Source: Yoonia sp.
Lineage (GTDB): Bacteria > Pseudomonadota > Alphaproteobacteria > Rhodobacterales > Rhodobacteraceae
DNA: 64,000 bases
NCBI RefSeq assembly: GCF_042093035.1
Contig: NZ_JBELFI010000001.1
Coordinates: forward strand, 13,814-77,813
Reading direction: 5' to 3'
Positions 2,574 to 54,062 of this stretch are shown piece after piece. A model generated the notes under the pieces. That model saw only the letters and a list, made by a program, of their open reading frames with translations. It had not been told where the DNA came from and searched no databases. The first letter of the stretch is position 1, and every line of letters begins with the position of its first letter. The translations under genes and the position numbers were made by a program.

Positions 2574-3371
2574 ATGGACTACGAAAAGCTAACGCAAGTC
2601 ATCCGGCGCTTGGCCCTTCAGGCGGGTGACAAGATCATGGAGATCTATGACAGCGCCGATTTTGACGTCCGGGCCAAAAGTGACGACAGCCCAGTTACCG
2701 CAGCCGATGAAGCGGCCGATGCCATTATCAGCACCGGGTTGCGTCAGGCATTTCCCGATGTGGCGCTCGTGACAGAGGAACAGGCGGCATCGCACGCGCA
2801 AACAGTTGAGACATTCCTGATCGTCGATCCCCTGGATGGCACCAAGGAATTCATCAAGCGGCGTGGCGATTTTACCGTCAATATAGCGTATGTGCTTGAA
2901 GGCCGTCCGGTGCGCGGTGTTGTCTACGCACCTGCGCGGGGACGGCTCTTCTTTACAGATGCGACCGGGCAAGCGGTTGAAGAAACCGGCGTTTTCGACA
3001 AAAACATTCTTGGGCCTGTGGCGCCGATAGCGGTTTCCAAACCCGATAACGCAGCCCTGCTCGTGGTCGCGTCGAAATCGCACCGTGATGCTGCGACTGA
3101 TGCCTATATCAGTAAATACAACACTAAGGACATGAAAAGCGCGGGGTCGTCTTTGAAGTTCTGTTTGGTCGCAACCGGTGAAGCTGATCTTTATCCCCGC
3201 GTGGGGCGCACAATGGAATGGGATACCGCAGCAGGCCACGCCGTACTTTCCGGGGCGGGCGGGCATGTCGTGCGCTTTGATGACCACACAGAGCTGCGCT
3301 ACGGCAAGCCGATATTCGAAAATCCGTTCTTCATCGCCTATGCCCCCGGCGTCAATCTGGAGCAGCCCTAA
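2574..3371 (+). CDS. cysQ: 3'(2'),5'-bisphosphate nucleotidase CysQ (inositol monophosphatase family)
   Basis: Carries the IMPase-family motifs LIVDPLDGTKEF and WDTAAGHAVL. ATG at 2574 is preferred over the GTG at 2565 used by the ORF track. Confidence 0.85.
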   Translation: MDYEKLTQVIRRLALQAGDKIMEIYDSADFDVRAKSDDSPVTAADEAADAIISTGLRQAFPDVALVTEEQAASHAQTVETFLIVDPLDGTKEFIKRRGDFTVNIAYVLEGRPVRGVVYAPARGRLFFTDATGQAVEETGVFDKNILGPVAPIAVSKPDNAALLVVASKSHRDAATDAYISKYNTKDMKSAGSSLKFCLVATGEADLYPRVGRTMEWDTAAGHAVLSGAGGHVVRFDDHTELRYGKPIFENPFFIAYAPGVNLEQP

Positions 3372-4171
3372 TGTCCGTCCTTATTGCAATTCCTGCGCGA
3401 TATGCCTCCACCCGCTATCCCGGCAAACCACTTGTCACTTTGCAAGGTGCCTCTGGAGAGGCAAAAAGCCTGATCCGGCGGTCATGGGATGCGGCATGTG
3501 CCGTGAAGGGCGTTGACCGTGTTGTCGTGGCGACTGACGATGATCGCATAGCAAAGGCGGCCGTGGCTTTCGGGGCAGATGTGGTGATGACGTCACCGGC
3601 ATGCGCAAACGGAACAGAGCGTTGCGCAGAGACCCTGGAAAACATCGCTGAGGACTTTGAAATCATCGTTAATCTTCAGGGTGATGCGCCGCTCACCCCT
3701 GCATGGTTTGTCGCGGATCTGGTGCAAGGGCTGCGCGACAATCCTGCGGCACAGGTTGCAACGCCTGTCTTGCGGACCGAAGGGAAGGCCTTGAACGGGC
3801 TGTTGCAGGACCGTCGCGCAGGGCGCGTGGGCGGCACGACGGCTGTCTTTGGCGCAGATCACAACGCGCTCTATTTCTCGAAAGAGGTAATCCCCTACAC
3901 AGGACAGTCATATGGCGACGGTGACGAAACGCCTGTTTTTCATCATGTCGGTGTCTACGCCTATCGGCCCGAAGCGCTTCTGGCCTATCCGCAATGGGCA
4001 ACTGGCCCGCTTGAAGCGCTCGAAGGACTTGAGCAGCTGCGATTCCTCGAACGTGGCGTGCCGATGCTTTGCGTGGAGGTAGACGCGCACGGGCGGCAGT
4101 TTTGGGAGCTTAACAATCCCGAAGATGTGCCACGGATCGAAGCGATGTTGGCGGAAATGGGCCACGCATAG
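3371..4171 (+). CDS. kdsB: 3-deoxy-manno-octulosonate cytidylyltransferase (CMP-Kdo synthetase)
   Basis: The N-terminus MSVLIAIPARYASTRYPGKPL and the internal NLQGDAPL motif are typical of KdsB/KpsU. Its start overlaps the cysQ stop (TAATG). Confidence 0.9.
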   Translation: MSVLIAIPARYASTRYPGKPLVTLQGASGEAKSLIRRSWDAACAVKGVDRVVVATDDDRIAKAAVAFGADVVMTSPACANGTERCAETLENIAEDFEIIVNLQGDAPLTPAWFVADLVQGLRDNPAAQVATPVLRTEGKALNGLLQDRRAGRVGGTTAVFGADHNALYFSKEVIPYTGQSYGDGDETPVFHHVGVYAYRPEALLAYPQWATGPLEALEGLEQLRFLERGVPMLCVEVDAHGRQFWELNNPEDVPRIEAMLAEMGHA

Positions 4172-4288
4172 GCAGAAAATGACCGCCGGGGATGGAAATA
4201 GGCGATATTTTGATGAAATGGCCTTAATATCGTGCTGTTAACCATCTAGGGGTTATGGTCGAGGAAATTGTTATTCGGTGGTGCAGTC

Positions 4289-5182
4289 ATGCAAAGAAAA
4301 GTGACAAAAGCGGTCTTTCCGGTTGCCGGTCTGGGCACGCGCTTTTTGCCTGCAACCAAGTCCGTGCCCAAAGAGATCATGACACTGGTGGACCGCCCTT
4401 TGATCCAATACGCCATTGATGAAGCACGCGCCGCCGGGATTGAGGATTTTATTTTCGTCACGGCACGCGGCAAATCTGCGTTGGAAGACTACTTTGATGT
4501 CTCGCCCGATCTGGAGGCATCGCTGGAGCAATCCGGCAAGACCGCGCTTCTTGAAATCCTGCGCAACACCAATATGGACAGCGGCACGATCGCCTATCTG
4601 CGCCAGCACAAAGCGCTGGGCCTTGGCCACGCTGTGTCTTGCGCGCGCAAGATGATTGGGGATGAACCTTTTGCTGTGATTTTGCCAGATGACGTCATCG
4701 CAGCGGAAAAACCCTGCCTGCAACAAATGGTCGAGGCCCATGCGGAAACCGGCGGCGCCATGGTCGCCACGATGGAGGTTTCGCCTGAGCAAGCATCGTC
4801 ATACGGTGTTTTGGATATCGCGGGCCAGGATGGGCGGATTGTGAAGGTCAGCGGGATGGTTGAAAAGCCGCCGATGGGCACCGCGCCCTCCAATCTGGCA
4901 GTGATCGGGCGTTATATCCTGACGCCACAGGTCTTGAAGAACTTCGATCATATCGGGCGCGGCGCCGGTGGGGAAATCTAGCTGACCGATGCCATCGCCG
5001 CTGAGATTAACGCCGGGCGCGATGTCTTTGGCTATCGGTTCGCTGGGGAACGCTATGACTGCGGTTCCAAAGCGGGCTTCTTGCAGGCAACTGTCGCTTT
5101 TGCCTTGGCACGCGACGATCTTCGCGATGAATTTGCGGAGTTTCTGGCGGAAATGCACGCAGTCCAAAAGGCTGCGCAATAG
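4289..5182 (+). pseudogene. galU: UTP-glucose-1-phosphate uridylyltransferase GalU, interrupted by an in-frame TAG at 4979-4981
   Basis: The N-terminal part has KAVFPVAGLGTRFLPATKSVPKEIM. The frame reads ...[53 protein letters not shown] and ends at TAG 5180-5182. The stop sits where GalU proteins carry Q in GGEIQLTDA. The 201 nt after the stop stay in frame. Confidence 0.85.
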
Positions 5183-5184
5183 GG

Positions 5185-6231
5185 TTGTCTGGCAGAGCCC
5201 TTTCATCCGAGAAGGGATTGCCTGGGCTTTGGGGGGCATATCGCCTGCGCTGGAAACGTCGCCGGTTTCTGTTTCGGATTTGGCGCAAGCGCAAGCAAAT
5301 CAAGCCACTTCAAAATCGCATCGCAGAGGTCGCGCAGGACGCGATCCTTGTTTTTGCGACCATGCGCAACGAAATGGTGCGGCTGCCTCATTTTTTGGCG
5401 CATTACCGTGCGTTGGGTGTCGATCACTTCCTGATCGTAGACAACGGCAGTGACGACGGGACGGTTGCCTATCTGGCGGACCAACCGGATGTCTCGGTTT
5501 GGCAGACGCAAAAGTCTTATCGGCTGGCGCGTTTTGGAATGGATTGGGTCGGGTGGCTTCAATGGCGATATGGCCACGACCATTGGTGCCTGACCGTCGA
5601 TGCGGATGAGCTGCTGATATATCCAGACCACGATGCAAAAGACCTCAAGGCGCTGACTGCCTGGCTTGACGGCAAGGGTATTTCGTCAATGGGTGCGCTG
5701 ATGCTGGAATTATACCCCGAAGGCCCCATTCAGGATGTCCAATACACGCCGGGAGACGACCCAACAGAGGCTCTGTGTTGGTATGATGCGGATAACTACA
5801 CGCAGCAGTATCACCCCTACTACGGCAATCTGTGGATTCAAGGCGGGGTCCGGCGGCGGGTGTTCTTTGACCGCGAACCGGCGCGCGCGCCAACGCTGAG
5901 CAAGACGCCTTTGGTACGGTGGAACAGGCGCTTCGCTTATGTCAGCTCAACCCATCAAATTTTGCCGCGCTATTTGCATGATGTCTTTGACCCTGAGGGA
6001 CAAACCAAAGTGACCGGCGTCTTATTGCACACAAAATTCCTGCCTGTCATTGCTGAGAAATCCGCAGAAGAGCTGACCCGCCAACAGCATTTTCAGAATT
6101 CCGAAGCCTATGTGACCTACCACCAGCAATTGACGGAAAACCCCGACCTTTGGCACAAGACTGCGCAACGCTACGAGGGGGCCGAAAAACTCATTGCGCA
6201 AGGGTTGATGTCAAAAGGCGATTGGGTCTGA
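5185..6231 (+). CDS. Glycosyltransferase-like protein (GT2_4/GT92-like fold), paralog 1
   Basis: Motifs ILVFATMRNE..LPHFLAHYRALGVDHFLIVDNGSDDGT and the DxD-like TVDADELL. About half of aligned residues match the next gene by eye. The only in-frame start codons upstream of the conserved region are TTG at 5185 or 5218. Confidence 0.6.
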   Translation: MSGRALSSEKGLPGLWGAYRLRWKRRRFLFRIWRKRKQIKPLQNRIAEVAQDAILVFATMRNEMVRLPHFLAHYRALGVDHFLIVDNGSDDGTVAYLADQPDVSVWQTQKSYRLARFGMDWVGWLQWRYGHDHWCLTVDADELLIYPDHDAKDLKALTAWLDGKGISSMGALMLELYPEGPIQDVQYTPGDDPTEALCWYDADNYTQQYHPYYGNLWIQGGVRRRVFFDREPARAPTLSKTPLVRWNRRFAYVSSTHQILPRYLHDVFDPEGQTKVTGVLLHTKFLPVIAEKSAEELTRQQHFQNSEAYVTYHQQLTENPDLWHKTAQRYEGAEKLIAQGLMSKGDWV

Positions 6232-6270
6232 TATGCCGGCGGAGGGGATGAAAAACAGGTCACGGCGCTC

Positions 6271-7281
6271 TTGGGGATTTTGACATCATATCGGTTGCGA
6301 TGGCAGCGTAAGTGGTTGCGTCTGCGGGCCTTGCGCAAAGCGGCCGTCGTGAAGCCTGTCGCAGATCGCACGGATGGGATCGGACCGGATGATATCCTGC
6401 TGTTCTGCGCGTTCCGCAATGAGGATGTGCGCCTGCCGTATTTTCTGGACTACTACCGCAAGCTGGGCATCGACCACTTCGTTATGGTCGATAATGACAG
6501 CAGTGATGCAGGTGCTGCCTTTCTTGCCAACCAGCCGGATGTTTCACTTTGGTCAACGCATGATGCCTACGGGGATGCGCGGTTTGGCATGGACTGGCTC
6601 ACCTATCTGCAAGGCCGATTTGCCCCCGGTCATTGGGCGCTCACCGTCGATGTGGATGAGTTTTTTGTCTATCCCTTCTGCGACACGCGCCCGATCCGTG
6701 CCCTGGCTGATTGGCTGGACGCATCCAACGTCCGCTCATTCGGCGCGATGTTGCTGGATATGTATCCAAAAGGCCCGGTCAGCGCGTCCCGCTACACCAA
6801 AGGCGCGGACCCGTTCGAGATCGCCAATTGGTTTGATCCCGGCAATTATACGATGACCATGAACAAACTTTTGCGGAATCTCTGGATACAAGGCGGCCCG
6901 CGCGCCCGGACGTTTTTTTCCAGCAAACCCAAGCAGGCACCTGCGCTCAACAAGGTCCCCTTCGTGAAATGGCGCAAGCCCTATGCCTATGTCAGCTCAA
7001 CCCATATGATTTTGCCGCGCGGGCTGAACCTCGTTTATGACCAGCAGGGCGGTGAAAAAACATCCGGGATATTGCTGCACGCGAAGTTCCTCGACACCTT
7101 CGCTGGGCGCGCGCAGGAGGAAGCGCAGCGCGGTGAGCATTATCAAGCGGGTCAGGAATACCAGTCATACGCGGACAGGCACGGCGCGGACCCGGATTTC
7201 TGGTGCCAGTGGAGCGAGCAATATATCAATTGGCGCCAGCTTGAAGTCCTGGGGCTGATGTCAAAGGGAAACTGGGCATGA
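6271..7281 (+). CDS. Glycosyltransferase-like protein (GT2_4/GT92-like fold), paralog 2
   Basis: Motifs ILLFCAFRNE..LPYFLDYYRKLGIDHFVMVDNDSSD and TVDVDEFF. It shares the N-terminal YRLRW(K/Q)R(R/K) motif and the C-terminal GLMSKG(D/N)W with paralog 1. TTG start; its stop overlaps the next gene's start (ATGA). Confidence 0.6.
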   Translation: MGILTSYRLRWQRKWLRLRALRKAAVVKPVADRTDGIGPDDILLFCAFRNEDVRLPYFLDYYRKLGIDHFVMVDNDSSDAGAAFLANQPDVSLWSTHDAYGDARFGMDWLTYLQGRFAPGHWALTVDVDEFFVYPFCDTRPIRALADWLDASNVRSFGAMLLDMYPKGPVSASRYTKGADPFEIANWFDPGNYTMTMNKLLRNLWIQGGPRARTFFSSKPKQAPALNKVPFVKWRKPYAYVSSTHMILPRGLNLVYDQQGGEKTSGILLHAKFLDTFAGRAQEEAQRGEHYQAGQEYQSYADRHGADPDFWCQWSEQYINWRQLEVLGLMSKGNWA

Positions 7282-8981
7282 GTTTGGGCATTGTCATGCT
7301 GGTGCATACCGCCTTTGACCGCGCCGAACAAATGGTGCGTGTCTGGGATGCCGCCGGTTGCCCCGTCGTGATCCATGTGGACAGCGAGGTCGGCCAGGAG
7401 ACCCATGATGCCTTCAAACATGCTTTGGCGGATCTTGCCAACGTGCGCTTTTGTGCGCGCAACCGCTGTGAATGGGGGACATGGGGCCTTGTTGCGGCTT
7501 CGCAAACGGCGGCGACAATGCTGCTTGAAGACTTCCCCGACGTTTCGCATGTCTATCTTGCATCGGGGGCTTGCCTGCCGCTGCGCCCCGTGGATGAGCT
7601 GATCGCGTTTCTGATCGATCATCCCGACACCGATTTTATCGAAAGCGCGACAACCGCCGATGTGCCTTGGACTGTTAGCGGGCTGGACCGGGAACGCTTC
7701 ACGCTGCGCTTTCCCTTCGCCTGGAAGAAGCGCCGCAAGCTGTTTGACAGCGCCGTCAAGCTGCAACAAATGTTAGGTTATACGCGGAAAACTCCGGACG
7801 GGCTGGTGCCGCATATGGGGTCGCAATGGTGGTGTCTGACGCGGCAAACGCTCGATGCGATTTTGCAGGATCCCAACAGGCCGGCCTACGACCATTATTT
7901 CCGGCAGGTCTGGATTCCTGACGAAAGCTATTATCAAAGCCTTGTCCGGATACATGCCCGCCGGGTGGAGAGCCGGTCCCTGACCTTGGCGAAGTTCGAT
8001 TTTCAGGGCAAGCCACATATCTTTTTTGATGACCATATGCAGTTATTGCGCCGGTCTGACTGTTTTGTTGCTCGCAAGATTTGGAAGGATGCAGAGCTGC
8101 TTTACCGCAGTTTTCCACGAAAGAATGACCCTGATTGCGCGAAGGCGGCGCCGAATACCGGGACGGTTGACCGGCTCTTTTCGCAGGCTGCGATGCGCCG
8201 CACTCTGGGTCGGCCGGGGCTATATATGCAAAGCCGGTTCCCCAGTATCGACCGGGAAAACGGCGTTGCGGCAGCGCGTTATACTGTGTTGCAGGGCTTT
8301 GATGATGTGTTTGAGCAGTTCCAGAATTGGCTGGCCCGGCGCACCGGGGCACAGGTGCATGGCCATCTCTATGCCAAGGACCGCGCGCATTTTGCCGGTG
8401 ATGGCAAGATCTACAAAGGCGGGTTGTCCGACCATCCGCGGTTGCGGGATTATAATGCCACGATGTTCCTGACCAATCTGGTCTGGAACGGGCGCGAGGA
8501 CTATCATTGCTTCCAATTCGGCCCCGCCGACAGCCAGGACATCCGCTGGACCATCGCGCGCGATACCAATGCCAGCATCTGGGTGATTTCGGGTGCTTGG
8601 GCGATCCCGCTTTTCAGGTCCGGTCGTGCCGCAAGCGACGTGCGGGCCGAAGCTGCGCGGTTGCAGCGGATTGAAAATGCATTCCTCAAGACGTTGCGCG
8701 GACCAAATGCGCATGCGCGCATCTCGATCATGTCATTGGCCGAATTCATTCAGGCGCCGACAGATGCCTTGCAAACGATCATCGACGATATTGCTGGCCA
8801 CAGGGGCAAGGCGGTGTCAGAGCCGCCCAAGATGGCGGATTTGGACGGTTTGGCCGATTTCCTGCAGGACTTGCGTAACCAGGGTATGCACCCGTTCCTG
8901 ACCGGCGATATCACCCAAGGTGATGCGCGGCAGGCCAAGCGCGATGCGCCGCCGAAGCCTTATATCGTGGCGCGGAAATGA
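7278..8981 (+). CDS. GT14 (core-2/I-branching 'Branch'-type) glycosyltransferase-like N-terminal domain, fused to a ~290 aa C-terminal domain of unknown function
   Basis: The N-terminal half has ...VIHVDSE..., ...CEWGTWGLVAA..., YLASGACLPLRP, GSQWWCLTRQTLDAI and WIPDESYYQSLV, which match the Branch-family pattern. I do not recognise any motif in the C-terminal half. Confidence 0.55.
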   Translation: MSLGIVMLVHTAFDRAEQMVRVWDAAGCPVVIHVDSEVGQETHDAFKHALADLANVRFCARNRCEWGTWGLVAASQTAATMLLEDFPDVSHVYLASGACLPLRPVDELIAFLIDHPDTDFIESATTADVPWTVSGLDRERFTLRFPFAWKKRRKLFDSAVKLQQMLGYTRKTPDGLVPHMGSQWWCLTRQTLDAILQDPNRPAYDHYFRQVWIPDESYYQSLVRIHARRVESRSLTLAKFDFQGKPHIFFDDHMQLLRRSDCFVARKIWKDAELLYRSFPRKNDPDCAKAAPNTGTVDRLFSQAAMRRTLGRPGLYMQSRFPSIDRENGVAAARYTVLQGFDDVFEQFQNWLARRTGAQVHGHLYAKDRAHFAGDGKIYKGGLSDHPRLRDYNATMFLTNLVWNGREDYHCFQFGPADSQDIRWTIARDTNASIWVISGAWAIPLFRSGRAASDVRAEAARLQRIENAFLKTLRGPNAHARISIMSLAEFIQAPTDALQTIIDDIAGHRGKAVSEPPKMADLDGLADFLQDLRNQGMHPFLTGDITQGDARQAKRDAPPKPYIVARK

Positions 8982-10411
8982 AGCCTTTTGACTATTTCAT
9001 CATACTGGCGGGTATGCGCACAGGCTCTAACCTGCTTGAAGTCAACCTGAACGCGCTTGCAGGTGTCAGTTGCCATGGCGAGGCGTTCAACCCTTCTTTT
9101 GTGGGCGGTCCCAAGACGGACATGCTGTTGGGAGTTGATCTGGCAACGCGTGAAAACGACCCCACGGCGCTGCTTGAAAAGATCAAACAGAGCGATACTC
9201 TCGCCGGGTTTCGTTTCTTTCACGATCACGATCCGCGTATTCTCGACATCTGCTTGAACGACCGGCGCTGCGCCAAGATCATCCTGAGCCGCAATCCCGT
9301 CGATAGTTTTGTCAGCTGGAAAATCGCGCAGGCAACGGGGCAATGGAAGCTGACCAACGCGACAAAGACGAAGTCGCAGGTTGTCACCTTTGATGGGAAC
9401 GCATTCCGCGATCACGTTGACGCGCTCGGAGAGTTCCATTCAAAGCTGCGCCACAGACTGCAAACCACGGGGCAAGCGGTGTTTCATCTGCGGTATGATG
9501 ATTTGCGCGATGTGGATGTTCTCAATGGGCTCGCCGCTTATCTGGGTACCGACGCGCGGCTGTCCAACGTTGATAAGAAACTCAAGAAGCAGAACCCCGA
9601 ACCATTGCAGGACAGGGTCGCAAACTACGATGAGATGCGGCAGGCGCTGCATGAGATTGACCCCTTCAATCTCGACCATCTGCCGCAATTTGAACCGATG
9701 CGTGGGCCGGCAATCCCGACCTATGTTGCCGCACCGCAGTCGGCGCTGATGTACATGCCGCTCAGGTCTGGTCCTGATCGGGCTGTGATGGCGTGGTTGG
9801 CTGAATTGGACGGGATGGCGGTGGAAGAGCTGCTCACCCAGTTCTCACAGAGAACATTGCGAGCATGGCAAAGCCTGCACGGGCCGCATCGGCGCTTTGC
9901 TGTTGTCAGGCATCCACTGGCGCGTGCGCATGTGGCCTATTGTGATCGGATCGTCGGGCAAGGTGCGGCGCAATTGCCGGAGATCAGGGCGAACCTGCGC
10001 CGTGTACATGATCTGCGCATTCCCGCTGACGGGACCGATTTCACAGGGCGGGACGGCTATGACGTGGCCGCGCACGCGCAAGGATTTGCGGGTTTCCTCA
10101 GGTTCCTGCGCCATAATTTGGCGGGGCAGACCAGCATTCGCGTTGATCCATCATGGGCCAGTCAGAACGTCTTGTTGCAAGGCATGGCGCAGGTCGCCGC
10201 GCCTGATGCGGTTCTTCGCGAAGATGCATTGGCAACAGGATTGCCACATCTGGCGGCGCAAATCGGAATAACGGATTGTCCGGTTTGGACGGGCGGCGCG
10301 CACAAAAGGCAAACATGGTTGCGCGAAATCTATTCGCCGGAACTTGAGCGTGCAGCGCGTGACGCCTACGCGCAGGACTACCGTGTGTTCGGGTTCGAAA
10401 ACTGGACCTAG
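8978..10411 (+). CDS. Two-domain sulfotransferase-like protein (NodH/Stf0-like N-domain plus Sulfotransfer_2-like C-domain)
   Basis: The N-domain has FIILAGMRTGSNLLE, which resembles a PAPS 5'-phosphosulfate-binding loop. The C-domain has FAVVRHPLARAHVAYCDRI and a C-terminal ..AYAQDYRVFGFENW, typical of bacterial family-2 sulfotransferases. Its start overlaps the upstream stop (ATGA). Confidence 0.55.
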   Translation: MKPFDYFIILAGMRTGSNLLEVNLNALAGVSCHGEAFNPSFVGGPKTDMLLGVDLATRENDPTALLEKIKQSDTLAGFRFFHDHDPRILDICLNDRRCAKIILSRNPVDSFVSWKIAQATGQWKLTNATKTKSQVVTFDGNAFRDHVDALGEFHSKLRHRLQTTGQAVFHLRYDDLRDVDVLNGLAAYLGTDARLSNVDKKLKKQNPEPLQDRVANYDEMRQALHEIDPFNLDHLPQFEPMRGPAIPTYVAAPQSALMYMPLRSGPDRAVMAWLAELDGMAVEELLTQFSQRTLRAWQSLHGPHRRFAVVRHPLARAHVAYCDRIVGQGAAQLPEIRANLRRVHDLRIPADGTDFTGRDGYDVAAHAQGFAGFLRFLRHNLAGQTSIRVDPSWASQNVLLQGMAQVAAPDAVLREDALATGLPHLAAQIGITDCPVWTGGAHKRQTWLREIYSPELERAARDAYAQDYRVFGFENWT

Positions 10412-11476: not shown

Positions 11477-11711
11477 CGTATCTCCTTTATTGGGTCATGG
11501 GACATCGTGACGGCACAGCCAAGGGCTGTTTGGCGTCAAAGTCTCAAAGTCGGTTATTTTGATAACGCGCTGAAATCATTTCTCTTATCCGATAGCTCTG
11601 GCGGGAGGCCAGCATAGCTGCGGGGAAAGAAGTCAGTTTCGTCATCAAGGGTATTTGGCGTCAGATTGCCAGCGCTTGTCAATGATCCTCGGGGCGCTCT
11701 GACCAAAAGAA

Positions 11712-32952: not shown

Positions 32953-34470
32953 ATGCTCGAAGGAATTATGATTGGCCTACAGGCCGCTTTTTCGATCCAG
33001 AACATTCTTATGGTTGTCGCGGGTTGCTTGATCGGGACATTTATCGGGATGTTGCCGGGTCTTGGTCCGATGTCCATCATCGCGATTATGATCCCTGTTG
33101 CGATTACGCTGGGTGATCCGGCGGCGGCGCTGATCCTGCTCGCGGGTGTTTACTATGGCGCGATCTTTGGGGGATCGACCTCATCAATCCTGCTGAACGC
33201 GCCCGGCGTGGCAGGCACGGTTGCCACCAGTTTTGACGGCTATCCGATGGCCCAAAAGGGACAGGCGGGTAAGGCGCTGACCATCGCTGCCGTGGCGAGT
33301 TTCGCTGGTGGTACAATCGGTGCCGTGCTGCTGATGATTTTCGCGCCCGCGCTGTCTAGCGTGGCTTTGCTTTTCCATTCAGCCGAGTATTTCGCGCTGA
33401 TGGTCGTGGGCCTAAGTGCGATTGCTGCCTTTGCTGGCACGGGCCAAGTGGCCAAAGCGCTGATGATGACGATCCTCGGTTTGATCCTTGCCACCGTTGG
33501 CGAAGGCGCGCTTTTCAACATGCCGCGCTTTACGATGGGTATGATGGACCTGCAATCAGGCATTTCGTTTATCACGCTGGCGATGGCCATGTTCGCCCTG
33601 CCAGAAGCCTTGTTTCTGGTGCTGAACCCGATGCGTGGGTCAGGCCAAGGGGCAAGCAATAAAATCGAAGGTCTGCGCTTTTCACGCGAAGAAGGCAAAG
33701 CGATGATCCCCGTCATTGGCCGTCAATCGATCCAAGGTTTCTTCATCGGTGTTCTGCCGGGTGCAGGTGCGACGATTGCGTCGTTCCTTGGTTATGCGGT
33801 CGAACGCAACATTGCCAAAGGCGATGAGCAGGCGGAATTCGGCAAAGGGTCTGTCAAAGGGCTGGCAGCACCTGAAACGGCGAATAACGCGGCCTGTACC
33901 GGATCTTTTGTGCCATTGCTGACGCTGGGCATTCCCGGTTCCGGCACGACAGCGATCCTGTTGGGCGCGCTGATTGCCTTGAACGTCACCCCCGGCCCAC
34001 GCCTGATGGTCGATACGCCAGAGATCTTCTGGGCCGTCATCATTTCGATGTTCATCGGCAACTTGGTTTTGCTGGTCCTGAACCTGCCGCTGATCCCGTA
34101 TATCGCCAAGATCCTCGCGATCCCGCGCAACTACCTGATCCCGTTTATCCTGTTTTTCACGCTGATGGGTGCCTACATCGGGCAGAACAACGCGACAGAG
34201 CTTCTTATGCTGGTCGGGCTTGGCGTGATGGCGACGATCTTCCGGTTTGCGGATTATCCGCTGGCACCACTGCTGATTGGTTTCATCCTTGGCACCATGC
34301 TTGAGGATAACTTTGCGCGGTCAATGCAGCTCTATCGCGGTCTGGATTTCATTCTTGAGCGGCCGATGACATTGGGCCTGCTGACCCTTGCGGCTGTGCT
34401 TGTTCTGCTTCCCAGCTATCGCAACCGTCGTGCGCGCAAACGCGCCGAGGGCGTGGCGGATGGCGACTAA
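32953..34470 (+). CDS. tctA: Tripartite tricarboxylate transporter large permease TctA
   Basis: 505 aa polytopic protein with GMLPGLGP and GVLPGAGATIASF motifs. Confidence 0.9.
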   Translation: MLEGIMIGLQAAFSIQNILMVVAGCLIGTFIGMLPGLGPMSIIAIMIPVAITLGDPAAALILLAGVYYGAIFGGSTSSILLNAPGVAGTVATSFDGYPMAQKGQAGKALTIAAVASFAGGTIGAVLLMIFAPALSSVALLFHSAEYFALMVVGLSAIAAFAGTGQVAKALMMTILGLILATVGEGALFNMPRFTMGMMDLQSGISFITLAMAMFALPEALFLVLNPMRGSGQGASNKIEGLRFSREEGKAMIPVIGRQSIQGFFIGVLPGAGATIASFLGYAVERNIAKGDEQAEFGKGSVKGLAAPETANNAACTGSFVPLLTLGIPGSGTTAILLGALIALNVTPGPRLMVDTPEIFWAVIISMFIGNLVLLVLNLPLIPYIAKILAIPRNYLIPFILFFTLMGAYIGQNNATELLMLVGLGVMATIFRFADYPLAPLLIGFILGTMLEDNFARSMQLYRGLDFILERPMTLGLLTLAAVLVLLPSYRNRRARKRAEGVADGD

Positions 34471-52647: not shown

Positions 52648-53352
52648 ATGGTCGATCTGTGGGATGGTCTGACCCAAGCGTTTTGGCTTGTGGTGACCTT
52701 GGACGCGGAACTGGCAGAGATCGCGTTGCGCTCGCTTTATGTCACGCTCACAGCGCTTGTGATTGCTTGCGTGGTCGCTTTTCCGTTGGCCGCACTTCTT
52801 GCCGTGCGCAGGTTCCGGTTTCGCCGGTTTGTCATTGCGGTTCTGAATGCCTTGATGGGGTTGCCGCCGGTTGTTGTTGGCCTGATCGTATATGTCCTGC
52901 TGTCGCGGTCCGGCCCGTTCGGGGTGCTGGGTCTTCTGTTCACGCCGACTGCCATGATTATCGCGCAGGTCATTATCATCGTCCCGTTGATTGCCAGCAT
53001 CGCGCATCAGTCCCTGCGTGATCTTTGGCAGGAATATCACGACCTTCTCATTTCGATGAATGTGACCCAGAGCCAAAAAATGCGAACGCTGATCTGGGAT
53101 GCGCGCAGGGCGCTTCTGACAGCAGCACTGGCCGGCTTCGGGCGCGGGATCGGCGAGGTGGGCGCGATCATGATTGTCGGTGGCAACATAGACAACGTGA
53201 CGCGCGTGCTGACCACAGCGATTGCGCTGGAAACCGGCAAGGGGGCGTTTGCGCTCGCTCTGGCGCTTGGCTTTGTGCTGATTGCCCTGACGATCGCGGT
53301 GAACCTTATGACCCATTGGCTCAGCCAGACGGAACGTGAGGGGCGATGGTGA
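52648..53352 (+). CDS. ABC transporter permease (TupB/sulfate-molybdate-type)
   Basis: About 234 aa with 5-6 helices and an EAA-like loop. GAAGGA RBS before the ATG at 52648. Confidence 0.7.
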   Translation: MVDLWDGLTQAFWLVVTLDAELAEIALRSLYVTLTALVIACVVAFPLAALLAVRRFRFRRFVIAVLNALMGLPPVVVGLIVYVLLSRSGPFGVLGLLFTPTAMIIAQVIIIVPLIASIAHQSLRDLWQEYHDLLISMNVTQSQKMRTLIWDARRALLTAALAGFGRGIGEVGAIMIVGGNIDNVTRVLTTAIALETGKGAFALALALGFVLIALTIAVNLMTHWLSQTEREGRW

Positions 53353-54062
53353 TGAGCTTGTTCCCCCTCAAAGTCACTGGCGCAGAGACCCGCCGTCGCG
53401 GCAAGGTGATTGTCGGACCGGTTTTCCTTGATCTTAATGGTGATGGCACCACGGTGATTGTTGGCCCGAACGGATCCGGCAAGACGACGCTTCTGCGTCT
53501 GCTTCACGGGACCGCACGATTGAACGCTGGGACGATTGACTGGCATCAACCTATTGAGACGGTGCGTGAGGCGCAGTCTTTCGTGTTCCAGCGTCCGGTC
53601 ATGCTGCGCCGCAGTGTCATCGAAAACATAGCCTACCCGCAGCTCATCCGCGGCGTCACAAAGCCGAAGGCATTGGCATTGGCCCGCACTTGGGCCGCGC
53701 ATGTCGGCCTGGGCGACATGCTCAAACGCGCCGCGACGAGCCTTTCGGGGGGGGAGCAACAAAAGCTGGCCCTTGCGCGTGCGTTCATCACCGATCCGCA
53801 GGTCGTGTTTCTGGACGAACCCTGCGCCTCACTTGACGGGCGCGCAACGGCTGAGATCGAGGCAATTTTGCGGGATCAAAAGGCACGCGGCACACGGTTT
53901 ATCATGTCTACCCACGACATGGGGCAGGCGCGCCGATTGGCAGATGCGGTTGTTTTTCTACGCGGCGGTCAAGTCCATGAGACGGCCCCAGCGCCCGGTT
54001 TCTTTGATGCCCCCCAGACTGACGCAGCACGCGCCTTTCTGAACGGAGATATCGTGGAATGA
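53346..54062 (+). CDS. ABC transporter ATP-binding protein (TupC-like)
   Basis: Walker A GPNGSGKTT, signature LSGGEQQKLALAR, Walker B VVFLDEP. Confidence 0.8.
   Translation: MVMSLFPLKVTGAETRRRGKVIVGPVFLDLNGDGTTVIVGPNGSGKTTLLRLLHGTARLNAGTIDWHQPIETVREAQSFVFQRPVMLRRSVIENIAYPQLIRGVTKPKALALARTWAAHVGLGDMLKRAATSLSGGEQQKLALARAFITDPQVVFLDEPCASLDGRATAEIEAILRDQKARGTRFIMSTHDMGQARRLADAVVFLRGGQVHETAPAPGFFDAPQTDAARAFLNGDIVE

Follow-up and report, generated by a model that had tools for sequence, protein, structure and literature searches.

A candidate glycan assembly and sulfation cluster conserved across the Rhodobacterales

Gene content of the cluster

The DNA considered here is a 64-kb stretch of a Yoonia sp. 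genome assembly (contig NZ_JBELFI010000001.1), hereafter the window. Positions 2574-10411 of its forward strand carry seven open reading frames (ORFs) that form the gene cluster under study: cysQ, kdsB, galU, two genes for related glycosyltransferases (GTa and GTb), a gene for a GT14 glycosyltransferase fused to the domain DUF5927, and a gene for a two-domain sulfotransferase (ST). A first-pass annotation, made from the sequence alone, had listed these seven same-direction ORFs with their likely functions. The ORFs are present as listed, and every domain assignment is backed by profile searches against Pfam and NCBIfam. None of the seven products contains a hydrophobic segment, and the chemistry of all seven enzymes is therefore cytoplasmic. 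The absence of Wzx and Wzy genes, also part of that annotation, agrees with our finding that no polytopic protein is encoded within 2574-10411.

The first two genes encode enzymes with clear family assignments. The product of cysQ (2574-3371, forward strand, as are all seven) is a 3'(2'),5'-bisphosphate nucleotidase, that is, a phosphatase for 3'-phosphoadenosine 5'-phosphate (PAP), which scores 261.8 bits against TIGR01331 (equivalog cut-off 228.8) and matches Pfam Inositol_P with E=5.7e-49. The product of kdsB (3371-4171) is the synthetase for the CMP-activated form of 3-deoxy-D-manno-octulosonic acid (CMP-Kdo), with 344.8 bits against NF003950 (cut-off 234).

The third gene, galU (4289-5182), belongs to the UTP-glucose-1-phosphate uridylyltransferases (TIGR01099), and its reading frame is broken. 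Codon 231 (4979-4981) is an in-frame TAG (Q231*) in place of the Gln of the conserved GGEIQLTD(A) motif, and the product is shortened by its last 67 residues. With Gln put back at this codon, GalU reaches 328.2 bits, where the cut-off is 326.8. The window has six near-identical counterparts among metagenome contigs (99.7-99.99% identity), and all five that cover codon 231 read CAG. The closest contig (L003; we number related loci with the prefix L) has one other difference from the window in 14.4 kb. Recoding, or any other normal feature of the gene, can be ruled out because the TAG is unique to the window among near-identical contigs and replaces a conserved Gln. The TAG is either a private nonsense mutation of the window strain or, conceivably, a base misread in sequencing; a mutation of this kind may have arisen in the laboratory or been selected by phage as a loss-of-function allele. 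The first-pass annotation had overlooked the TAG, so that its seven genes become six intact ones and one that is broken. Across the conspecific contigs, a hand tally of variable sites in the seven genes gave about 21 synonymous and 12 non-synonymous changes, which suggests purifying selection.

GTa (5218-6231) and GTb (6271-7281) are paralogous GT-A glycosyltransferases of Pfam family PF13704. They score 116.7 bits (E=7e-34) and 106.7 bits (E=8.8e-31), respectively, against a cut-off of 27.5. Both carry an invariant DxDE motif, which in GTb is formed by D127, D129, and E130 and is invariant in 31 sequences. The sole PDB profile match of GTb is a weak one (E=0.03) to the GT-A domain of GmaR, and apart from it the PDB sequence search with this protein returned noise only.

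The next gene (7278-8981) encodes a protein of 567 aa in which a GT14 domain (Branch, PF02485; 64.9 bits versus a cut-off of 23.4, E=1e-17) is followed by DUF5927 (E=4.4e-130). Sequence and profile searches of the PDB found nothing for the whole protein or for DUF5927 alone. An AlphaFold2 model has a mean predicted local distance difference test score (pLDDT) of 73.8, with most of the N-terminal domain above 85. In Foldseek searches this model matched human xylosyltransferase 1 (XT1; E=4.8e-13) and murine core-2 beta-1,6-GlcNAc transferase (C2GnT-L; E=1.5e-10) over about 325 columns. The GT14 assignment made in the first-pass annotation is thus sound on two counts, since the Pfam score is above the cut-off and the predicted structure has the GT-A fold of these two enzymes. 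Modeled alone at low confidence (pLDDT 63.9), DUF5927 gave the sulfotransferases Teg14, Teg12, and StaL and P-loop kinases as its top Foldseek matches, none of which reached E<=1e-3. Alignment of DUF5927 with the two ST domains in hhalign yielded non-significant probabilities of 1.5% and 0.5%. The idea that DUF5927 might be a degenerate sulfotransferase-like domain can serve as a lead only. In one lineage, whose ST is 34% identical to that of the window, the GT14 protein has 283 aa and lacks DUF5927 (L087:9110-9961), and we therefore regard this domain as an accessory addition.

The last gene (8978-10411) encodes the ST protein of 477 aa, in which a NodH-like domain (residues ~1-235) is joined to a Sulfotransfer_2-like domain (residues ~255-477). 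Pfam scores for the N-terminal domain are sub-threshold (20.2, 17.7, and 17.0 bits, Sulfotransfer_1 among them). This domain does match PDB 9vki, named "LPS sulfotransferase NodH," with E=9.5e-7. It also aligns with a full-length sulfotransferase of Rhizobium sp. NXC24 at 26% identity over 216 aa (pairwise E=5e-16). The gene for that protein sits between nodIJ and nodQ on a symbiosis plasmid (nodC-nodU-nodI-nodJ...nodQ). The NodH alignment spans RTG(S/T), (T/S)RNxxxS, and TGQW. Two motifs for binding of 3'-phosphoadenosine 5'-phosphosulfate (PAPS), MRTGSN for the 5'-phosphosulfate loop and RNPxDSxxS for the 3'-phosphate, are invariant in 14 homologues. The C-terminal domain scores 29-30.7 bits against PF03567 (Sulfotransfer_2, cut-off 22) and covers profile positions 59-251 only, a segment that we take to lie after the 5'-phosphosulfate-binding (5'-PSB) loop of the family. 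The two halves of ST are not similar to each other, which rules out a tandem duplication.

Conservation, junctions, and neighboring genes

Homologues of ST are widespread. The protein has more than 3,700 matches among 90%-identity protein clusters and, against 50%-identity representatives, 1,541 matches at E<=1e-3, of which 291 reach E<=1e-30; homologues as distant as 32% identity still have the two-domain length. With one genome taken per species, at least 596 species genomes were found to encode ST. Among the matches listed, the highest identity in this species collection is about 65%, and of the named organisms Yoonia, Loktanella, and Roseobacter sp. CCS2 come closest. The cluster is present in every named genome of Yoonia and Loktanella in the species scan. 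A plasmid origin was also considered and is ruled out, as plasmid records give only partial, NodH-level matches. Separately, a Paracoccus locus encodes an 826-aa extended relative of ST (L088:10001-12481) in a replicon-associated context that includes Rep3, a ParA-like protein, and an integrase. Genes close by encode a further sulfotransferase, an H-type lectin, a methyltransferase, and a GT61 enzyme, and we consider this to be a different sulfated-glycan locus.

Synteny was assessed in 80 loci fetched from the Rhodobacterales. They share a recurrent order in which a kpsM-like gene on the opposite strand is followed by cysQ, further cluster members, and GTb-GT14-DUF5927-ST, and then by the convergent genes ptsN-hpf-lptBAC-kdsD. 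This order is found in Yoonia, Loktanella, Cognatiyoonia, Roseovarius, Sulfitobacter, Shimia, Planktotalea, Pseudooceanicola, Marivivens, Octadecabacter, Salibaculum, and Primorskyibacter, and it is retained where ST is only 32-34% identical. The first-pass annotation had proposed to test the joint conservation of the last four genes, and had named its absence, like a failure of the profile searches, as grounds for refutation; both checks speak for the annotation. Joint conservation holds for GTb, GT14, and ST, which occur in every locus with enough sequence, but GTa is not universal.

The loci fall into two types. Type I, to which the window belongs, has the order cysQ-kdsB-galU-[galE]-GTa-GTb-GT14-ST, and GTa occurs in this type only. 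Type II (L024-L085) has the order cysQ-[kdsB]-GT2-galU-[galE]-GT4-GTb-GT14-ST. A GT2 protein of about 417 aa here follows kdsB and a GT4 protein of about 410-421 aa precedes GTb (in L052, for instance, at 2730-3983 and 5966-7231). The two modules, GTa and GT2+GT4, exclude each other. In both types, many loci have a galE-like epimerase gene after galU. Intact clusters of type I occur in Yoonia vestfoldensis DSM 16212 and Roseobacter sp. CCS2, and of type II in Sulfitobacter dubius and Roseovarius sp. 217. Among the 58 loci with both cluster ends, kdsB is missing in nine and galU in one. Because kdsB, galU, galE, GTa, and the GT2+GT4 pair vary between loci, the invariant core consists of the kpsM-like gene, cysQ, GTb, GT14, and ST.

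The reading that we favor, with slightly better than even confidence, is that the window carries the type I form of an order-wide chromosomal cluster of the Rhodobacterales for the cytoplasmic assembly of a short glycan and its PAPS-dependent sulfation before export to the envelope.

The seven genes had been described as translationally coupled throughout, which proved overstated. Overlaps exist at three of the six junctions, namely, the TAATG at 3369-3373, where the cysQ stop codon overlaps the kdsB start codon, and the ATGA sequences at 7278-7281 and 8978-8981, all of which are present as annotated. The other three junctions are gaps of 117 nt (kdsB-galU), about 35 nt (galU-GTa), and 39 nt (GTa-GTb). 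The galU-GTa gap had been given as 2 nt, a value that requires a TTG start codon at 5185. Gene calls on the near-identical contigs place the start at the equivalent of window position 5218, and GTa read from 5218 aligns without gaps to GTb (residue 3 against residue 2, 47% identity). These two observations lead to the longer gap, with TTG 5218 as the likely start. With the six near-identical contigs left out, the cysQ-kdsB overlap is kept in 42 of 49 loci and the 4-nt GTb-GT14 overlap in 46 of 72, and the distance between GT14 and ST is no more than 12 nt in 74 of 76. As judged from these loci, the junction arrangement is far beyond chance.

Two candidate regulatory elements lie at or within the cluster. 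Upstream of cysQ, at 2508-2536 on the forward strand, is a promoter-like TTGCTG-17 nt-CATAAG, which was recognized in a cross-genus alignment of the kpsM-cysQ intergenic region. Many genera share CTTGC[CT]G ... CATAAG[GC] there. A simple generic sigma-70 scan did not call the element, and its promoter role is putative. Within the 117-nt kdsB-galU gap, the motif GCCTTAATATCG...GTTAAC (4225-4250) is partly conserved in the Yoonia/Loktanella clade and may be an internal promoter for galU. Candidate promoter-like and terminator-like sites within the cluster were set aside, as they occur no more often than in shuffled sequence. Rfam finds no RNA elements in the cluster. Elsewhere in the window, at 33994-34121 on the reverse strand, it reports a Ruegeria cis8 sRNA (103 bits versus a gathering score of 58) that is unrelated to the cluster.

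Because of the gaps between gene blocks and the element upstream of galU, several transcription units are possible. This leads to an alternative that we judge unlikely, in which there is no single pathway and housekeeping cysQ, kdsB, and galU genes happen to lie beside a GTb-GT14-ST module whose product may be a modified protein or a sulfated oligosaccharide that is small and either soluble or lipid-anchored, rather than a surface polymer. The loci without kdsB or galU fit such a view. So does the fact that NodH, the closest characterized relative of ST, sulfates an oligosaccharide signal and not a polymer. Moreover, the best structural match of the GT14 domain is a protein O-xylosyltransferase, and the one weak PDB profile match of GTb, GmaR, is a protein O-GlcNAc transferase. 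However, cysQ stays beside the glycosyltransferase and ST genes in every locus, even those that lack kdsB, and the removal of PAP is exactly what a sulfotransferase needs. In addition, the retention of galU in nearly all loci, joined by galE in many, is the pattern of a dedicated precursor supply.

The genes that follow the cluster raise a second alternative. Its 3' boundary is set by ptsN-hpf-lptB-lptA-lptC-kdsD-rnd, which is convergent to ST. A CTAG at 10408-10411 holds the overlapping stop codons of these two genes (identified from the sequence and the ORF ends), so that no intergenic room is left for terminators between ST and ptsN. The cluster might build and sulfate the outer core of lipopolysaccharide (LPS). 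In this scheme, the glycosyltransferases would act on lipid A-Kdo on the cytoplasmic side of the membrane, the NodH-like domain would sulfate the core in the manner of LpsS, MsbA and the Lpt machinery would export it, and the KpsM-like protein would be unrelated. We rate this as less probable than the glycan-export reading, though it has more in its favor than the absence of any single pathway. The cluster always adjoins ptsN-hpf-lptB-lptA-lptC-kdsD, usually with kdsB coupled to cysQ, and the most distant locus continues into lpxL-like, waaA (PF04413), GT4, and GT25 genes. The three to four non-processive-looking glycosyltransferases, together with the lack of a polymerase or flippase, suit a core oligosaccharide, and the GT2 and GT4 enzymes of type II are of a kind common in core synthesis. 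The family to which ST belongs is named "LPS sulfotransferase NodH" by JGI and NCBI, and sulfated LPS reportedly exists in alpha-proteobacteria through LpsS of Sinorhizobium meliloti.

Four considerations count against an LPS core. The lpt block, being convergent, does not share a transcript with the cluster. The name of the family was assigned automatically, and the universal presence of a divergent kpsM-like gene is left unexplained. Finally, the only published lipooligosaccharide (LOS) structure from the clade, that of Loktanella (Yoonia) rosea, is Neu-Kdo2-GlcN2-GalA and contains neither hexose nor sulfate (PMC3210612), even though all named Yoonia and Loktanella genomes scanned carry the cluster.

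The same neighborhood informs the role of kdsB. The product had been proposed to be a Kdo-linked glycan, a claim that finds no support in the absence of kdsB from the cluster in the nine loci noted above. The gene, which lies beside kdsD and lptCAB, is most simply read as a housekeeping LPS gene. With regard to the lpt block, the enterobacterial order is kdsD-lptCAB-rpoN-hpf-ptsN, in which rpoN lies between lptB and hpf. In the window, this position is occupied by a 235-nt gap between lptB and hpf-ptsN (11477-11711), and rpoN is absent here and from this place in every related locus. On the left side of the cluster, dnaK and dnaJ lie beyond the kpsM-like gene. A long forward-strand ORF at 689-1639 is the antisense shadow of dnaK, which lies on the reverse strand and extends past the left edge of the window, and it is not a gene.

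Predicted assembly, sulfation, and export of the product

If the cluster is a pathway for a sulfated envelope glycan, its steps would be as follows. GTb, the GT14 protein, and the lineage-specific module (GTa, or GT2 and GT4) would build an oligosaccharide or short repeat, using a lipid-linked acceptor on the inner side of the membrane. GalU, with GalE where present, would supply UDP-hexose, and KdsB would supply CMP-Kdo. Sulfotransferases draw on PAPS and leave behind PAP, the substrate that CysQ hydrolyzes, and PAPS-dependent sulfation of a glycan must precede its exit from the cytoplasm. The NodH-like domain of ST, and possibly the second domain as well, would transfer sulfate from PAPS, perhaps to the 6-OH of a hexosamine by analogy with NodH, while CysQ would clear the inhibitory PAP.

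Export would then involve the kpsM-like gene at 1625-2464 on the reverse strand. As the first-pass annotation had it, this gene is divergent from cysQ. It encodes a polytopic protein that resembles an ABC-2 permease (ABC, ATP-binding cassette), with distant NCBIfam and PDB matches to KpsM. The match to the KpsM chain of PDB 8tsh is full length (E=4.5e-5), and a Pfam search with the protein gave no match. All 46 loci with sufficient flanking sequence have the gene divergent from cysQ; in a Planktotalea metagenome-assembled genome (L076:271-1070) it is split across two frames, by either a frameshift or an assembly error. Because the KpsM-like protein is the sole membrane component and is universally divergent beside cysQ, we favor it as the export route, and the most likely exporter would be this permease, with its ATPase encoded at another locus. 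Of all parts of the model, export is the weakest. Of the ABC-2 export system that had been proposed, the 64-kb window contains the permease alone.

Several observations weigh against the favored reading. To begin with, both the glycan and its sulfation are predictions from the genes. With respect to export, the KpsM-like protein scores 43 bits (E=4.5e-11) against the NCBIfam KpsM model, whose equivalog cut-off is 300, and none of KpsT, KpsE, KpsD, KpsC, and KpsS is encoded in the window. No ATPase gene adjoins the permease gene or is available as its partner in the window, where the only ABC ATPases are LptB and the product of an ORF at 53346-54062 and the genes next to the cluster have housekeeping functions. 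Since a distant KpsM is the only Kps component present, we do not assign the cluster to the Kps family. With respect to synthesis, the cluster contains no initiating phosphoglycosyltransferase or polymerase, and no PAPS-synthesis gene was recognized in the 64 kb, for which the profile scan covered ORFs to about 29 kb only.

The sulfotransferase itself contributes to these doubts. It had been described as a double sulfotransferase, and this is secure for the N-terminal domain, which is a NodH homologue. The C-terminal domain is above the Pfam cut-off, but its profile match is partial and its putative PAPS motifs are atypical. The canonical forms are PKxGxT for the 5'-PSB loop and RxPxxRxxS for the 3'-phosphate-binding motif. 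The candidate motifs of this domain, PLRSGPD and RHPxARAHxA, are invariant among homologues and presumably lack the usual Thr and Ser residues, including the Ser of the 3'-phosphate motif. A PDB sequence search with the C-terminal domain found no relative. The L. rosea LOS, free of hexose and sulfate, also speaks against the favored reading. If the product is surface exposed, it would have escaped that analysis.

The galU nonsense codon has probably disabled the pathway in the window strain. Loss of the last 67 residues of GalU would cut off the supply of UDP-glucose, leaving the cluster product truncated or absent, and the codon may also have polar effects on GTa. The allele is a natural candidate for a product-deficient variant.

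A more far-reaching version of the sulfated-glycan proposal can be formulated, and we regard it as improbable. It holds that marine roseobacters as a group make a hitherto unrecognized sulfated surface glycan with an enzyme of XT1/C2GnT fold that carries a degenerate sulfotransferase-like DUF5927. The glycan would be doubly sulfated by the NodH::Sulfotransfer_2 fusion, would resemble sulfated mucin-like or glycosaminoglycan-like matrices, possibly as a mimic of the sulfated polysaccharides of the algal hosts, and would be exported by an ABC-2 permease that relies on an ATPase from another locus.

Roseobacters rank with the most abundant alga- and surface-associated marine bacteria, and it is their envelope glycans that determine susceptibility to phage, attachment, and recognition of hosts. 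Should the glycoconjugate exist, at least 596 species would share it as a conserved and apparently undescribed trait, made by families without a characterized bacterial member (GT14-DUF5927 and the NodH::Sulfotransfer_2 fusion). A sulfated bacterial glycan as such would be no surprise; what stands out is that this one would be conserved and unstudied in an ecologically dominant lineage. The small invariant set comprising the kpsM-like gene, cysQ, GTb, GT14, and ST makes the question directly testable.

Comparison with known systems

The rhizobial NodH system offers the closest enzymatic parallel. The N-terminal 235 residues of ST align with the whole of NodH, PAPS motifs included, and in both systems the glycan substrate is cytoplasmic and an ABC-2 permease is encoded nearby. 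Unlike NodH, the domain is here fused to a second, unrelated Sulfotransfer_2-like domain. The NodABC machinery for chitin oligomers is absent, and the KpsM-like protein can be ruled out as a NodJ, to which it is not detectably similar. Furthermore, the cluster resides on the conserved chromosome backbone of an order, whereas the Nod system resides on a symbiosis plasmid.

Two other alpha-proteobacterial enzymes provide precedents for PAPS-dependent sulfation of envelope glycans. LpsS is said to sulfate the LPS of S. meliloti (work attributed to Cronan and Keating in 2004), much as in the present proposal, and KpsS reportedly sulfates a K-antigen capsule in Mesorhizobium loti (attributed to Townsend and Keating in 2008), likewise a cytoplasmically made envelope glycan. 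Both are reportedly single-domain enzymes, unlike the two-domain ST. To our knowledge, neither occurs alongside GT14 or PF13704 glycosyltransferases or is conserved across a whole order.

The eukaryotic enzymes XT1 and C2GnT-L resemble the GT14 protein in the predicted GT-A fold of residues 1 to about 260. Identity to them is 12-18%, and the bacterial enzyme lacks a signal anchor and is hence cytoplasmic. It also adds DUF5927, which is dispensable in at least one lineage.

Kps group 2 loci share several features with the cluster. Both have a KpsM homologue (a distant one in the cluster), KpsU-like (KdsB) and KpsF-like (KdsD) functions nearby, and cytoplasmic assembly in the absence of Wzx and Wzy. 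The sulfated capsular polysaccharide locus of Vibrio sp. KMM 8419 contains glycosyltransferases, sulfotransferases, PAPS genes, and a Kps ABC exporter, with kpsT located apart from kpsDME (PMC11641403). The combination of glycosyltransferases with sulfotransferases is thus common to that locus and ours. By contrast, the cluster described here lacks KpsT, KpsE, KpsD, KpsC, and KpsS within 64 kb and carries no PAPS-synthesis genes of its own, and it is conserved across an order in two architecture types only, instead of being hypervariable.

Within the Rhodobacteraceae, the production of sulfated envelope polysaccharides has been shown chemically. Sulfated O-polysaccharides are described from Poseidonocella pacifica and P. 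sedimentorum (Kokoulin et al. 2017, 2018, Carbohydr Polym; as cited in PMC7281560, PMC11826415, and PMC9912281), and the accounts found of them assign no genes. Our literature search found no paper on the cluster, on DUF5927, or on sulfotransferases for roseobacter LPS or capsule. Set beside these systems, the cluster is of a known kind, a glycan cluster with PAPS-dependent sulfation, and its unusual features are its order-wide conservation, the GT14-DUF5927 protein, and the two-domain ST.

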